DNA of 64,000 nucleotides from Eledone cirrhosa (taxonomy: Eukaryota), in assembly GCA_964016885.1 (NCBI GenBank), contig OZ024761.1:30876001-30940000 (forward strand), in the 5' to 3' direction. The position numbers were made by a program, and so were the translations under genes. A model generated the notes under the pieces. That model did no database searches, was not told the DNA's origin, and worked only from the letters and a program-made list of their open reading frames with translations. The first letter of the stretch is position 1; the number at the start of each line of letters is the position of its first letter. Below are positions 6,362 to 58,060 of the stretch, piece by piece.

Positions 6362-6810
6362 CATCATCATCATCATCATCACCGTTTTACGTCCGTTCTT
6401 CCACGCTAGCATGGATTAGACGAGTTGTCCTGTTGTGGGCAGTGTCCGGTCGGCTGACCTTGTCTTGCTCATACGAGAACTGACTCTAGCTTGATTTCTA
6501 CAGCTGGATGCCCTTCCTAACACCAACCTCATTTATAGTGAGTGTTGGGTGCTTTTTTTCCGTAGCGCCTCCACGTCCACTTTACAGTGTGGGCTGGGTG
6601 CCCCCCTGCTGTGGCACCTCCAAGACCACTTTGCAGTGGAATGATAGGGACCCCAGTCCCTAGCATCTCATTTCTACAGCTGAGTAAACTGGAGCAATGT
6701 GAAATAAAGTGTCTTGCTCGAGGAAACAACACATCACCTGGTCTGAGAATTGAACTCACAATCTTTTGATTGCAAGTCCAATGCTCTAACCACTAAGCCA
6801 TGTGCTTTCA
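6362..6810 (-). mobile_element. tRNA-derived SINE with RTE-like (ATG)n tail; related copies at 32771-33100 (+), 3670-4083, 18895-19160, 28280-28490 and 60146-60410
   Basis: A box tggcttagtgg, B box gagttcaattc, gagcaagacactt core, tail catgctagcgtggaa...gatgatg. Confidence 0.75.
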
Positions 6811-40343: not shown

Positions 40344-40432
40344 CATCATCATCATCTATACATACATATATATATATGCCAGGTGGTGCTATTAAGGTTA
40401 GACATGGGCCAATACTGGCCGAAACCTATCAG

Positions 40433-48556
<8,124 letters not shown>

Positions 48557-48770
48557 GTTAAAAATGTACATCCACATATGTATACTGAAATACTAGTATG
48601 CATATGAATACACACACGTGTACATATGTAGATGTACCGAGTTTTCACTGGTCACTTTACTGTGAGTGTCCAGCTATTCTGTATGTAGACACACAGACAA
48701 ACCGGTTCTTAGAGTCATACTGGTTTTTGAGGAAACACCTTTCCTCTATTCTCCAGAAAGCCAGACAAGG

Positions 48771-48815
48771 AATATTGGACTAGTTTCGATGTTGTTACAT
48801 CTCATCAGCAATATT
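48771..48815 (-). ncRNA. Type I hammerhead ribozyme
   Basis: Reverse complement of aatattg-CTGATGA-gatgt(aaca)acatc-GAAAC-ta-GTC-caatatt. Confidence 0.9.
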
Positions 48816-49235
48816 TACCTATCTTCCGGCTTCTCTAGAGAATCGTGAAAGCACCTATCGTTATATGCTTTTTCTATGAAAATTAGTAGTGGGCAGACCA
48901 ATTTGCATAGAGCGTGAGTACGTACCGGTTCAACGGAGACGATAAAAACAAATAACGAAACGAAATTAAATTTCGTTTCGTTTGTAACTCACTTTTGTAT
49001 GACTGACGCTTAAACAATTAAGTTAAAAATGTACATCCACATATGTATACTGAAATACTAGTATGCATATGAATACACACACGTGTACATATGTAGATGT
49101 ACCGAGTTTTCACTGGTCACTTTACTGTGAGTGTCCAGCTATTCTGTATGTAGACACACAGACAAACCGGTTCTTAGAGTCATACTGGTTTTTGAGGAAA
49201 CACCTTTCCTCTATTCTCCAGAAAGCCAGACAAGG

Positions 49236-49280
49236 AATATTGGACTAGTTTCGATGTTGTTACATCTCATCAGCAATATT
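49236..49280 (-). ncRNA. Type I hammerhead ribozyme
   Basis: Same motif, +465. Confidence 0.9.
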
Positions 49281-49700
49281 TACCTATCTTCCGGCTTCTC
49301 TAGAGAATCGTGAAAGCACCTATCGTTATATGCTTTTTCTATGAAAATTAGTAGTGGGCAGACCAATTTGCATAGAGCGTGAGTACGTACCGGTTCAACG
49401 GAGACGATAAAAACAAATAACGAAACGAAATTAAATTTCGTTTCGTTTGTAACTCACTTTTGTATGACTGACGCTTAAACAATTAAGTTAAAAATGTACA
49501 TCCACATATGTATACTGAAATACTAGTATGCATATGAATACACACACGTGTACATATGTAGATGTACCGAGTTTTCACTGGTCACTTTACTGTGAGTGTC
49601 CAGCTATTCTGTATGTAGACACACAGACAAACCGGTTCTTAGAGTCATACTGGTTTTTGAGGAAACACCTTTCCTCTATTCTCCAGAAAGCCAGACAAGG

Positions 49701-49745
49701 AATATTGGACTAGTTTCGATGTTGTTACATCTCATCAGCAATATT
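49701..49745 (-). ncRNA. Type I hammerhead ribozyme
   Basis: Same motif, +930. Confidence 0.9.
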
Positions 49746-49903
49746 TACCTATCTTCCGGCTTCTCTAGAGAATCGTGAAAGCACCTATCGTTATATGCTT
49801 TTTCTATGAAAATTAGTAGTGGGCAGACCAATTTGCATTAGAGCGTGAGTACGTACCGGTTCAACGCATATAACGATTCTCTAGAGAAGCCGGAAGATAG
49901 GTA

Positions 49904-49948
49904 AATATTGCTGATGAGATGTAACAACATCGAAACTAGTCCAATATT
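49904..49948 (+). ncRNA. Type I hammerhead ribozyme
   Basis: Stem I aatattg/caatatt; CUGAUGA 49911-49917; stem II gatgt/acatc; GAAAC-ua-GUC with cleavage predicted after 49941. Confidence 0.92.
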
Positions 49949-50368
49949 CCTTGTCTGGCTTTCTGGAGAATAGAGGAAAGGTGTTTCCTCAAAAACCAGT
50001 ATGACTCTAAGAACCGGTTTGTCTGTGTGTCTACATACAGAATAGCTGGACACTCACAGTAAAGTGACCAGTGAAAACTCGGTACATCTACATATGTACA
50101 CGTGTGTGTATTCATATGCATACTAGTATTTCAGTATACATATGTGGATGTACATTTTTAACTTAATTGTTTAAGCGTCAGTCATACAAAAGTGAGTTAC
50201 AAACGAAACGAAATTTAATTTCGTTTCGTTATTTGTTTTTATCGTCTCCGTTGAACCGGTACGTACTCACGCTCTATGCAAATTGGTCTGCCCACTACTA
50301 ATTTTCATAGAAAAAGCATATAACGATAGGTGCTTTCACGATTCTCTAGAGAAGCCGGAAGATAGGTA

Positions 50369-50413
50369 AATATTGCTGATGAGATGTAACAACATCGAAA
50401 CTAGTCCAATATT
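50369..50413 (+). ncRNA. Type I hammerhead ribozyme
   Basis: Same motif, next monomer. Confidence 0.92.
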
Positions 50414-50833
50414 CCTTGTCTGGCTTTCTGGAGAATAGAGGAAAGGTGTTTCCTCAAAAACCAGTATGACTCTAAGAACCGGTTTGTCTGTGTGTCTACA
50501 TACAGAATAGCTGGACACTCACAGTAAAGTGACCAGTGAAAACTCGGTACATCTACATATGTACACGTGTGTGTATTCATATGCATACTAGTATTTCAGT
50601 ATACATATGTGGATGTACATTTTTAACTTAATTGTTTAAGCGTCAGTCATACAAAAGTGAGTTACAAACGAAACGAAATTTAATTTCGTTTCGTTATTTG
50701 TTTTTATCGTCTCCGTTGAACCGGTACGTACTCACGCTCTATGCAAATTGGTCTGCCCACTACTAATTTTCATAGAAAAAGCATATAACGATAGGTGCTT
50801 TCACGATTCTCTAGAGAAGCCGGAAGATAGGTA

Positions 50834-50878
50834 AATATTGCTGATGAGATGTAACAACATCGAAACTAGTCCAATATT
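50834..50878 (+). ncRNA. Type I hammerhead ribozyme
   Basis: Same motif. Confidence 0.92.
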
Positions 50879-51298
50879 CCTTGTCTGGCTTTCTGGAGAA
50901 TAGAGGAAAGGTGTTTCCTCAAAAACCAGTATGACTCTAAGAACCGGTTTGTCTGTGTGTCTACATACAGAATAGCTGGACACTCACAGTAAAGTGACCA
51001 GTGAAAACTCGGTACATCTACATATGTACACGTGTGTGTATTCATATGCATACTAGTATTTCAGTATACATATGTGGATGTACATTTTTAACTTAATTGT
51101 TTAAGCGTCAGTCATACAAAAGTGAGTTACAAACGAAACGAAATTTAATTTCGTTTCGTTATTTGTTTTTATCGTCTCCGTTGAACCGGTACGTACTCAC
51201 GCTCTATGCAAATTGGTCTGCCCACTACTAATTTTCATAGAAAAAGCATATAACGATAGGTGCTTTCACGATTCTCTAGAGAAGCCGGAAGATAGGTA

Positions 51299-51343
51299 AA
51301 TATTGCTGATGAGATGTAACAACATCGAAACTAGTCCAATATT
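51299..51343 (+). ncRNA. Type I hammerhead ribozyme
   Basis: Same motif. Confidence 0.92.
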
Positions 51344-51763
51344 CCTTGTCTGGCTTTCTGGAGAATAGAGGAAAGGTGTTTCCTCAAAAACCAGTATGAC
51401 TCTAAGAACCGGTTTGTCTGTGTGTCTACATACAGAATAGCTGGACACTCACAGTAAAGTGACCAGTGAAAACTCGGTACATCTACATATGTACACGTGT
51501 GTGTATTCATATGCATACTAGTATTTCAGTATACATATGTGGATGTACATTTTTAACTTAATTGTTTAAGCGTCAGTCATACAAAAGTGAGTTACAAACG
51601 AAACGAAATTTAATTTCGTTTCGTTATTTGTTTTTATCGTCTCCGTTGAACCGGTACGTACTCACGCTCTATGCAAATTGGTCTGCCCACTACTAATTTT
51701 CATAGAAAAAGCATATAACGATAGGTGCTTTCACGATTCTCTAGAGAAGCCGGAAGATAGGTA

Positions 51764-51808
51764 AATATTGCTGATGAGATGTAACAACATCGAAACTAGT
51801 CCAATATT
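51764..51808 (+). ncRNA. Type I hammerhead ribozyme
   Basis: Same motif. Confidence 0.92.
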
Positions 51809-52228
51809 CCTTGTCTGGCTTTCTGGAGAATAGAGGAAAGGTGTTTCCTCAAAAACCAGTATGACTCTAAGAACCGGTTTGTCTGTGTGTCTACATACAG
51901 AATAGCTGGACACTCACAGTAAAGTGACCAGTGAAAACTCGGTACATCTACATATGTACACGTGTGTGTATTCATATGCATACTAGTATTTCAGTATACA
52001 TATGTGGATGTACATTTTTAACTTAATTGTTTAAGCGTCAGTCATACAAAAGTGAGTTACAAACGAAACGAAATTTAATTTCGTTTCGTTATTTGTTTTT
52101 ATCGTCTCCGTTGAACCGGTACGTACTCACGCTCTATGCAAATTGGTCTGCCCACTACTAATTTTCATAGAAAAAGCATATAACGATAGGTGCTTTCACG
52201 ATTCTCTAGAGAAGCCGGAAGATAGGTA

Positions 52229-52273
52229 AATATTGCTGATGAGATGTAACAACATCGAAACTAGTCCAATATT
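52229..52273 (+). ncRNA. Type I hammerhead ribozyme
   Basis: Same motif. Confidence 0.92.
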
Positions 52274-52693
52274 CCTTGTCTGGCTTTCTGGAGAATAGAG
52301 GAAAGGTGTTTCCTCAAAAACCAGTATGACTCTAAGAACCGGTTTGTCTGTGTGTCTACATACAGAATAGCTGGACACTCACAGTAAAGTGACCAGTGAA
52401 AACTCGGTACATCTACATATGTACACGTGTGTGTATTCATATGCATACTAGTATTTCAGTATACATATGTGGATGTACATTTTTAACTTAATTGTTTAAG
52501 CGTCAGTCATACAAAAGTGAGTTACAAACGAAACGAAATTTAATTTCGTTTCGTTATTTGTTTTTATCGTCTCCGTTGAACCGGTACGTACTCACGCTCT
52601 ATGCAAATTGGTCTGCCCACTACTAATTTTCATAGAAAAAGCATATAACGATAGGTGCTTTCACGATTCTCTAGAGAAGCCGGAAGATAGGTA

Positions 52694-52738
52694 AATATTG
52701 CTGATGAGATGTAACAACATCGAAACTAGTCCAATATT
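52694..52738 (+). ncRNA. Type I hammerhead ribozyme
   Basis: Same motif. Confidence 0.92.
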
Positions 52739-53158
52739 CCTTGTCTGGCTTTCTGGAGAATAGAGGAAAGGTGTTTCCTCAAAAACCAGTATGACTCTAA
52801 GAACCGGTTTGTCTGTGTGTCTACATACAGAATAGCTGGACACTCACAGTAAAGTGACCAGTGAAAACTCGGTACATCTACATATGTACACGTGTGTGTA
52901 TTCATATGCATACTAGTATTTCAGTATACATATGTGGATGTACATTTTTAACTTAATTGTTTAAGCGTCAGTCATACAAAAGTGAGTTACAAACGAAACG
53001 AAATTTAATTTCGTTTCGTTATTTGTTTTTATCGTCTCCGTTGAACCGGTACGTACTCACGCTCTATGCAAATTGGTCTGCCCACTACTAATTTTCATAG
53101 AAAAAGCATATAACGATAGGTGCTTTCACGATTCTCTAGAGAAGCCGGAAGATAGGTA

Positions 53159-53203
53159 AATATTGCTGATGAGATGTAACAACATCGAAACTAGTCCAAT
53201 ATT
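53159..53203 (+). ncRNA. Type I hammerhead ribozyme
   Basis: Same motif. Confidence 0.92.
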
Positions 53204-53623
53204 CCTTGTCTGGCTTTCTGGAGAATAGAGGAAAGGTGTTTCCTCAAAAACCAGTATGACTCTAAGAACCGGTTTGTCTGTGTGTCTACATACAGAATAG
53301 CTGGACACTCACAGTAAAGTGACCAGTGAAAACTCGGTACATCTACATATGTACACGTGTGTGTATTCATATGCATACTAGTATTTCAGTATACATATGT
53401 GGATGTACATTTTTAACTTAATTGTTTAAGCGTCAGTCATACAAAAGTGAGTTACAAACGAAACGAAATTTAATTTCGTTTCGTTATTTGTTTTTATCGT
53501 CTCCGTTGAACCGGTACGTACTCACGCTCTATGCAAATTGGTCTGCCCACTACTAATTTTCATAGAAAAAGCATATAACGATAGGTGCTTTCACGATTCT
53601 CTAGAGAAGCCGGAAGATAGGTA

Positions 53624-53668
53624 AATATTGCTGATGAGATGTAACAACATCGAAACTAGTCCAATATT
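53624..53668 (+). ncRNA. Type I hammerhead ribozyme
   Basis: Same motif. Confidence 0.92.
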
Positions 53669-54088
53669 CCTTGTCTGGCTTTCTGGAGAATAGAGGAAAG
53701 GTGTTTCCTCAAAAACCAGTATGACTCTAAGAACCGGTTTGTCTGTGTGTCTACATACAGAATAGCTGGACACTCACAGTAAAGTGACCAGTGAAAACTC
53801 GGTACATCTACATATGTACACGTGTGTGTATTCATATGCATACTAGTATTTCAGTATACATATGTGGATGTACATTTTTAACTTAATTGTTTAAGCGTCA
53901 GTCATACAAAAGTGAGTTACAAACGAAACGAAATTTAATTTCGTTTCGTTATTTGTTTTTATCGTCTCCGTTGAACCGGTACGTACTCACGCTCTATGCA
54001 AATTGGTCTGCCCACTACTAATTTTCATAGAAAAAGCATATAACGATAGGTGCTTTCACGATTCTCTAGAGAAGCCGGAAGATAGGTA

Positions 54089-54133
54089 AATATTGCTGAT
54101 GAGATGTAACAACATCGAAACTAGTCCAATATT
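54089..54133 (+). ncRNA. Type I hammerhead ribozyme
   Basis: Same motif, last copy. Confidence 0.92.
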
Positions 54134-54420
54134 CCTTGTCTGGCTTTCTGGAGAATAGAGGAAAGGTGTTTCCTCAAAAACCAGTATGACTCTAAGAACC
54201 GGTTTGTCTGTGTGTCTACATACAGAATAGCTGGACACTCACAGTAAAGTGACCAGTGAAAACTCGGTACATCTACATATGTACACGTGTGTGTATTCAT
54301 ATGCATACTAGTATTTCAGTATACATATGTGGATGTACATTTTTAACTTAATTGTTTAAGCGTCAGTCATACAAAAGTGAGTTACAAACGAAACGAAATT
54401 TAATTTCGTTTCGTTATTTG

Positions 54421-56207
<1,787 letters not shown>

Positions 56208-56816
56208 GGTGGCTGCCAACTCGTTTTCGAGTACGGCCACTACTTTATATCCATGTAGGAGAACACCTACTGATGCGCTGAACGAGTGTGACTTTTTAGA
56301 CCAGCCAGCGACTTGAAAACTCTGGTACAAACACCACACTTGTGACAATTATTGACACATAGTGCTAGGCCCATGGTACCATGTAACGACAAGTGCAGAG
56401 AGATCTCCAGATATAAAGCAATGCCTGTGCCGTGAAGCTTTTATAGTGAGCAAAGGCACTGCACAAAGCCAGTCCCACTCTCTTAACCAAGATGATATTT
56501 ACCAAAAAGAAGAACAAGTCAACATCATTGGATACCATCAGGGTTGCAGGTGTTATATCAGAGTTTTCCTTCTCCTAGAATTCTGCCTTGACAAAGGCTA
56601 AGGGGTCATCTTTCCCGGTGATTTTGGATGGCCATTGACTCTTAAGAGCTCCTTTGCCCTTTGACAGGTTTTGTTTTTAGTCCTGCAGGATGTCCAAAGT
56701 CACCCTCCTCACCAAGAAACCTTGGTGGGGTTGCCAGTTTAGTCGCCAACGACCCGACCATGAGACAGGTTGTACTGGGATACATGTTACCAGTAGCACC
56801 AGCTAGTGACCTGACA
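56208..56816 (-). mobile_element. Probable LINE (RTE-like) 5'UTR fragment embedded in TA arrays
   Basis: Unique island with ctaggagaaggaaaactctg on -, a motif I recall from RTE 5' regions (unverified). Confidence 0.35.
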
Positions 56817-57803
<987 letters not shown>

Positions 57804-58058
57804 TAACTTTGAATAACTTTGAAATGTTTTGGCCAGTATTGGCCCAGGCCATGTCTAACTTAATAGCACCACCTGGCGAAGTCTTTCAATTCAGGATTTG
57901 GGCACCATGGCCCATTCGAGAAGAGAATTACTGTTTGCGGAGACATATCCGGGTGTGGGTGGTTTGTCCGGGATTACTTGGAGGAATTTGTCCAAAGACT
58001 TCTTGAATTTTGTGTGGTCAGTTTCTGTTTTGACGTGTCCTGGTGTGATGTTGAAGAG

Positions 58059-58060
<2 letters not shown>
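57804..58060 (-). mobile_element. CR1/L2-like LINE 3' end (short copy of the same tail at 40378-40435, +)
   Basis: [20 protein letters not shown]...NSL; ttcaaagtta tail repeats. Confidence 0.7.

Follow-up and report, generated by a model that had tools for sequence, protein, structure and literature searches.

How does a tandem array come to consist of two arms of opposite sense, fused head to head, that both run directly into (TA)n sequence? We address this question for a locus in a 64,000-nt stretch of Eledone cirrhosa DNA, referred to here as the window. A preliminary description had proposed that both target strands primed cDNA synthesis on a circular template in a single event, citing 5' inversions as typical of Penelope insertions and of L1 twin priming. 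The explanation that we favor, with moderate confidence, is a single recent insertion of a non-LTR retrozyme that is itself non-autonomous: the RT/GIY-YIG protein of a Penelope-like element (PLE) would have produced the array in trans through rolling-circle copying of a circular monomer. As separate parts of this explanation, two-ended priming of the PLE type is highly likely, and a circular template, given such priming, is likely.

The window array, its unit and its target tracts

The array is built from a 465-nt unit, one copy of which extends from cleavage site to cleavage site at 50407–50871 (+ strand). Type I hammerhead ribozymes occur ten times on the + strand and three times on the − strand of the array. 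One of these 13 copies (50358–50429, +) matches Rfam HH9 with an E value of 1.9e-8 and 38.9 bits, which is below the 52-bit gathering score, and a search at the gathering threshold missed the ribozyme. From the hammerhead consensus, cleavage is predicted after GTC, between 50406 and 50407, and we number phases from 50407, the first nucleotide past this site (phase 1). The monomer, predicted to be a circular RNA, is highly structured (MFE −153.4 kcal/mol, z −8.3; as stable in 0 of 100 shuffles), with a GC content of about 0.37 and no ORF, the longest stop-free stretch being 64 codons. A 13-bp hairpin that folds between the two start sites described below (phases 261–289; 50667–50695, +) is a candidate RT-binding element. 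The tandem units that each carry a type I hammerhead, the non-coding, low-GC, structured monomer and its dispersed multi-copy occurrence identify the window element as a non-LTR retrozyme. The RT plus GIY-YIG ORF of an autonomous PLE is absent from the 465-nt unit.

The left arm (48551–49866, −) is 1,316 nt or 2.83 units long, and runs from phase 308 at its 5' end to phase 227 at its RNA-sense 3' end, which is the proximal or "short" start site. The right arm (49873–54427, +) has 4,555 nt or 9.80 identical units, and runs from phase 375/397 to phase 301, the distal or "long" start site. These values agree with the 2.8 and 9.8 units on opposite strands given in the preliminary description, and both RNA-sense 3' ends are indeed seen to enter (TA)n, with the 5' ends fused head to head. 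The left arm matches the unit perfectly from 48551 to 49838, then carries an extra T (49838–49839, +), 28 nt from the joint, and continues with 27 more matching bases. At the joint (49866–49877, +), the right arm has its true start at 49866, with a 1-nt overlap (G), and phases 375–386 then pass to phase 402 through an ACGAT microhomology, so that 15 nt between two ACGAT words are missing; from 49873 to 54427 the match to the unit is perfect. The extra T is the sole within-array variant outside the joint, giving 1 variant in 5,838 nt compared, and the earlier statement that this T and the 15-bp deletion are the only variants holds. It also holds that the outer ends lie off the ribozyme cleavage site, as they are 227 and 301 nt past it.

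The array is flanked on the left by 8.1 kb of (TA)n with TACA variants (40434–48550; TRF) and on the right by a (TA)n/TACA tract (54428–56207) of the same strand polarity. On the + strand, we counted 551 C and 2 G at 40700–48550 and 132 C and 0 G in the right tract. Both tracts thus carry C on the + strand, so the flanks are not mirror images, which argues against the joint being an assembly or long-read fold-back artefact. Such an artefact would be consistent with the position of the joint within noisy TA tracts, with a PLE locus of this genome that is palindromic including its flanks (L141, see below), and with the contigs of four sequencing runs, none of which spans the window joint, a result that is uninformative as disproof. 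However, the outer ends of the two arms differ and obey the rule of the family described below, and their 5' phases differ as well (308 vs 375/397). In addition, run X1 yielded contigs with TA ends at phases 227, 232 and 301 and with 10 further joints between a left and a right arm, so this class of structure exists outside this assembly. An artefact is very improbable, and we conclude that the two-armed structure in the window is real, its joint being known from this assembly alone.

Several other features lie near the array. Scattered single-base slips at 42200–47300 suggest that consensus accuracy in this part of the TA tract is below that of the array. A 613-bp element (56207–56819) sits inside the right TA tract and has full-length copies of 96–98% identity in L050 and L113, often beside PLEs. 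Related 60-bp stretches (83%) at 40377–40436 and 57805–58059 bound the whole 17-kb TA domain in inverted orientation; the right-hand stretch recurs at 99.6% identity in L119 and L194 and contains a small GGCC hairpin resembling a degenerate hammerhead stem II. A tRNA-like match on the − strand (6743–6800; 35.2 bits) is probably the head of a SINE.

Start sites and joints across the family

The genome (3.0 Gb) holds about 2,000 or more insertions of this retrozyme, with 1,622 exact copies of a ribozyme 33-mer, 1,952 exact long-end/TA junctions, and 548 short-end/TA junctions on the forward strand, the reverse-strand count being inflated by repeated matches. We sampled 50 stretches: the window, the 20 loci of greatest similarity to it (drawn from the 150 matches listed out of 264, and biased to young, long arrays), and 29 clusters on C1. 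The latter were all those among the first 100 ribozyme matches on C1 and were picked for an intact ribozyme core, not by end type. The 50 stretches gave 52 insertions, one of which was cut by a stretch end and dropped, leaving 51 that were complete. In total, about 70 of the 2,000 or more loci were examined.

Thirty-nine of the 51 complete insertions were two-armed, all of them divergent, and 12 were single-armed; no convergent joint was found among the 51. The structure in the window is therefore not due to chance, and the inversions looked for in other copies are present. RNA-sense 3' ends (n = 90) fell at the distal site in 44 cases (phases 295–302; 41 exactly at 301), at the proximal site in 38 (224–232) and elsewhere in 8. 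TA directly adjoined 78 of the 90 ends, as anticipated for other copies. All 34 two-armed insertions with both ends canonical combined one long and one short end (p = 6e-11), and 5 of the 39 two-armed insertions had a non-canonical end. A census by position alone at 0–143 Mb of C1, whose loci partly overlap the sample above, found 100 long and 62 short ends. Divergent neighbors within 10 kb were long/short in 28 cases, long/long in one and short/short in one; 72 of the 100 long ends had no exact short partner, and the pairing counts cover the matched ends. The long/long pair (L052) is two separate insertions, and the short/short pair (L183) is a true exception to the pairing.

The 5' ends at the joints were distributed uniformly around the unit (n = 78, Rayleigh p = 0.65), with 1 of 78 within 3 nt of the cleavage site. 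The random end phases that had been predicted for the family are thus found at 5' ends and contradicted at 3' ends, 82 of 90 of which lie at the two fixed sites. Arms reached 18 units, and both arms exceeded one unit in 21 of 34 insertions. Arm length did not differ between start sites (Wilcoxon p = 0.46), and the lengths of paired arms were not clearly correlated (rho 0.26, p = 0.14). Most joints had 0–9 nt of overlap or short filler sequences, some of these copied from parts of the unit close by, an anatomy that we take to resemble polymerase-theta joining.

In L1 twin priming, the second target strand primes on the RNA to give a 5' inversion joined by microhomology, and the first cDNA halts at the second primer. 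Only 2 of 51 distal-site arms were 110 nt or shorter, so the first arm rarely halts at the second priming site. Twin priming of the L1 type in the strict sense is not supported.

Two further ideas about the ends were rejected. Priming by best TA homology fails because longer TATA/ATAT matches at phases 150, 172, 193, 198, 376 and 428 are unused. A collision of the long arm with the short site was suggested by 13 of 34 long-arm 5' ends near that site (phases 195–270, an interval chosen post hoc); in a fresh sample the count was 5 of 17 (p = 0.13), and enrichment is not established.

Some loci showed additional rearrangements. A 65-nt GC-rich foreign sequence was captured at one head-to-head joint (L200:669–735), and same-strand jumps inside an arm occurred at L047:4380 and 5195, L045:3860 and L079:4379; in L047, an identical 445-to-330 junction is found twice, 816 nt apart. 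At L076:2609–4816, two retrozyme pieces, both of which stop at the hairpin near phase 277–283, are separated by a 5.5-kb insert that contains a LINE-like RT frame.

Two arms could also result from a single priming event, after which fold-back or self-priming copies the first strand into an inverted arm (the model of PMC3846280, as given in its accessible text). This would explain a common haplotype directly, and the short arm of the window could, by length, be a copy of the long arm. We examined 51 long/short loci, the 34 above and 17 newly fetched. Three joints were palindromic (loop 0) and one had a 10-nt loop. However, neither arm fits inside the other in 10 of the 51 loci, which contradicts the model for those 10. 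The implied loops were uniform (KS p = 0.77), with 5 of 51 at 40 nt or less against 4.5 expected, the loop implied for the window is 376 nt, and the longer arm was the long-site arm in 26 loci and the short-site arm in 25. Fold-back of a single first strand is quite improbable.

Template haplotypes and the nature of the template

In 33 of 35 loci, no compared family-polymorphic site distinguished the two arms of an insertion, whereas random locus pairs showed such agreement in 125 of 1,128 cases; a gap-placement flip at phases 10–11 (four loci) was set aside, and phases 128–137 were skipped for a like reason. Over the 20 loci with at least two copies per arm, there was one fixed between-arm difference in total, and 20 private variants, in 12 loci, were fixed across both arms. 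No array was mixed at phase 98 (23 with A, 9 with G). The window carries its own variant, a G at phase 388 (50794, +), in 12 of 12 units of both arms, where the other 49 stretches have T. The 25-mer containing this G has 13 matches in the genome, 12 in the window and one in L182. L182 was rejected as the donor because the variant there is an unrelated singleton in an older, 96% identical array, and the 25-mer search found no donor carrying the variant in this assembly.

Template jumping between RNAs is a property of R2-type RTs, and jumps between ribozyme-cleaved linear monomers could produce multimers without a circle. We found no scar, however, at 323 cleavage-site crossings, where the deviation (13/3,250 vs 420/145,711 elsewhere) was at background level, and 5' ends are not piled at the cleavage site. 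Jumps between molecules should also mix haplotypes, whereas arms and arrays are unmixed. Jumping between monomers is largely refuted and hardly credible.

A short two-armed insertion might instead have been amplified later at the DNA level, by unequal crossover or slippage, as in the satellite model (bioRxiv 10.64898/2026.07.22.740005, accessible text). In the older arrays C1big and L059, common variants repeat at 4- or 6-unit spacing, indicating that DNA-level duplication also occurs, and the repeated internal junction in L047 likewise favors amplification. In the window, however, there is a difference of 1 nt per unit from the nearest relatives, and together with the near-absence of variants within the array this leaves little time for amplification. 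Private variants cross the inversion, and the monomer divergence gradient that the preliminary description had named as typical of unequal crossover is absent from the window array. As an origin for this array, later amplification is improbable to much the same degree as fold-back.

The same two-ended PLE priming could also have used long, uncleaved multimeric transcripts of a homogeneous donor array, with no circle, whether one RNA was read twice or two RNAs came from one locus. In vitro, the anole PLE acted mainly on unprocessed RNA, according to the accessible text of PMC11167929, and autonomous PLEs form the same two-armed structure from long, presumably linear RNA. The scarless cleavage sites and uniform 5' ends fit uncleaved multimers equally well. 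What such multimers cannot do alone is fix a new single-unit mutation across 12–19 units and both arms: this requires a single-unit bottleneck followed by regrowth, which circles can provide and linear multimers cannot. Arrays copied from multimers could only shrink over generations, and both the missing donor of the window variant and the unmixed arrays at phase 98 speak against this alternative, which we consider unlikely. Counting against the circle, 20 of the 208 minor substitutions are found in more than one locus. Common haplotypes might also stem from a lone active donor locus or from conversion of one inverted arm by the other, and the one-haplotype pattern could likewise arise if a single donor, active and homogeneous, were missing from this assembly. 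Judged by the anatomy of the DNA, the template was probably circular.

For the favored explanation, we propose the following course. Tandem transcripts would self-cleave and ligate into 465-nt circles; self-cleavage and circularization of retrozymes have been seen in other animals (PMC7229834, accessible text). The enzyme, probably a dimer, would cut both strands of a (TA)n tract, and, according to the accessible text of PMC11167929, the anole PLE, predicted to be a dimer, cuts and extends both strands in vitro. One 3' end would prime at RNA site 301 and the other at 224–232, the sites at which the ends are seen, using at most a few bases of TA match. Each RT would then travel around a circle of one and the same RNA haplotype, reading across the ribozyme site, presumably displacing strands, and making a number of turns that varies; the single haplotype and the scarless junctions are observed. 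The cDNA ends, halted at arbitrary phases, would be joined by small overlaps, deletions or templated fillers, as the observed junction anatomy suggests, through a presumed repair pathway. The short/short pair L183, the long/long PLE locus L141, the 12 single-armed insertions and the 5 with a non-canonical end count against this explanation. So do the periodic variants of older arrays, the start sites common to both strands in the anole PLE and, among the matches listed, the missing homology between the unit and the PLE families examined. We conclude that the original proposal is supported as regards one event, two primed strands and one haplotype, and that its template was probably circular.

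Penelope-like elements of the same genome and related systems

Fragments beside the sampled loci matched GIY-YIG over the cut-off and, weakly, RVT_1. They belong to two abundant families, A and B, which by these matches appear to be autonomous PLEs; family A has an ORF of about 1,240 aa, a hammerhead-like motif in its pLTR and CX4CX2C before the nuclease. Each family has two 3' ends in (TA)n, about 60 nt (A) and 40 nt (B) apart. Among 17 fetched PLE loci of families A and B, both outer ends could be called in 10, and 9 of the 10 were long/short. The sole long/long locus, L141 (family B), is a 99.5% palindrome over 8.4 kb including flanks, which represents either a secondary inverted duplication or an assembly fold-back. 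One 3' end of each kind is the Penelope "tail" signature, which points to a PLE enzyme for the retrozyme. In the window, the corresponding "tail" (phases 228–301; 54354–54427, +) is terminal at the right end and missing from the left, and may be compared with the tails in the accessible text of PMC11167929 and PMC8557442. Along with this one-end tail and its two internal start sites, the insertions show the head-to-head truncated copy and the (TA)n target of PLE-mobilized sequences; any target-site duplication would blend into the TA tracts.

Comparison of the retrozyme unit with 25 family A, 25 family B and 30 GIY-YIG loci revealed no homology among the matches listed, and retrozyme matches inside PLE and GIY-YIG loci were neighboring insertions. 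Folding of the start-site regions of the unit and the PLEs gave no clear common structure. Families A (L136:3452–7174) and B (L150:4174–6807) are young, with median pairwise identities of 98.5% and 99.2% among the top matches. The ORF start of family A contains both of its start sites, an arrangement also seen in the anole element, and three or more additional GIY-YIG families are present (L152–L181). A 150–200 nt element with a strong internal palindrome lies between TA tracts in L031, L035, L047, L052, L053, L057, L063 and others (19 motif matches in the loci examined), and is possibly non-autonomous and TA-targeting.

The reverse transcription of retrozyme circles into tandem cDNA, with PLEs as candidate helpers, is a published hypothesis (Cervera and de la Pena 2020, PMC7229834). 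Li et al. 2026 (bioRxiv 10.64898/2026.07.22.740005) base a PLE origin on co-occurrence and pLTR phylogeny and, in the accessible text, discuss amplification by crossover. How retrozymes return to the genome, and how the tandem and inverted structures and tails of PLEs originate, are open questions in the accessible parts of PMC7229834, PMC8557442, PMC11167929 and bioRxiv 10.64898/2026.07.22.740005. The family numbers thousands of insertions, and as each preserves a haplotype along with two start and two stop positions, it links both questions: the element is of an ordinary class, and its insertions carry an unusually clean mechanistic record. If the favored explanation is true, tandem arrays are born full-length by reverse transcription and not grown by crossover, and there is genomic evidence on how RNA circles and Penelope helpers jump. 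It predicts that a PLE protein, a TA target and a circle would yield, in vitro, two strand-specific concatemers starting about 70 nt apart. More tentatively, the two subunits of a PLE RT-endonuclease dimer might engage a single circular RNA, one at each of the two fixed sites, take their primers from different target strands and roll together around that circle. Such obligatory priming at two sites from two strands might then underlie Penelope inverted repeats and one-sided tails in general, and produce kilobase satellite-like arrays in a single step. A literature search, with most subscription papers and supplements outside its reach, found no two-armed retrozyme insertions with paired fixed start sites, and the accessible text of PMC6765202 has nothing on insertion anatomy.

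Priming by the second strand, the 5' inversion and the microhomology joint are L1-like features of these insertions. In contrast to L1, both priming sites are fixed and internal, there is no poly(A), and the first arm passes the second primer.

As in animal non-LTR retrozymes, we found a non-coding tandem unit with a type I hammerhead per copy, about 37% GC, structure, dispersed arrays and coexisting PLEs. The unit of 465 nt compares with RNAs of 170–400 nt in PMC7229834 and with 51–972 bp in bioRxiv 10.64898/2026.07.22.740005. The accessible text of these two sources does not describe the head-to-head arms, fixed start sites and long/short pairing found here. Li et al. 2026 describe pLTR-derived retrozymes; homology of the unit to a pLTR was not found among the matches listed for families A and B and the 30 GIY-YIG loci.

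Published descriptions of PLEs include a 5'-truncated inverted copy, a bias toward TA and a tail that is frequently confined to one end (Craig et al. 2021, PMC8557442; Adineta PLEs, PMC3846280; accessible text of both). In anole Poseidon, the tail is as long as the interval separating two RT start sites (Frangieh et al. 2024, PMC11167929). The retrozyme insertions resemble endonuclease-positive PLEs in their head-to-head 5'-truncated copy, one-end tail, two internal RT start sites, AT-rich or (TA)n targets and hammerhead upstream of the start sites, as far as the accessible descriptions go. They differ in lacking an ORF, in arms of up to 18 perfect copies of one monomer, and in a tail of 69–77 nt against 30–40 nt in PLEs. 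Finally, long/short pairing is strict in the retrozyme, whereas for the anole PLE the accessible text of PMC11167929 describes in vitro start sites that do not differ between the strands.
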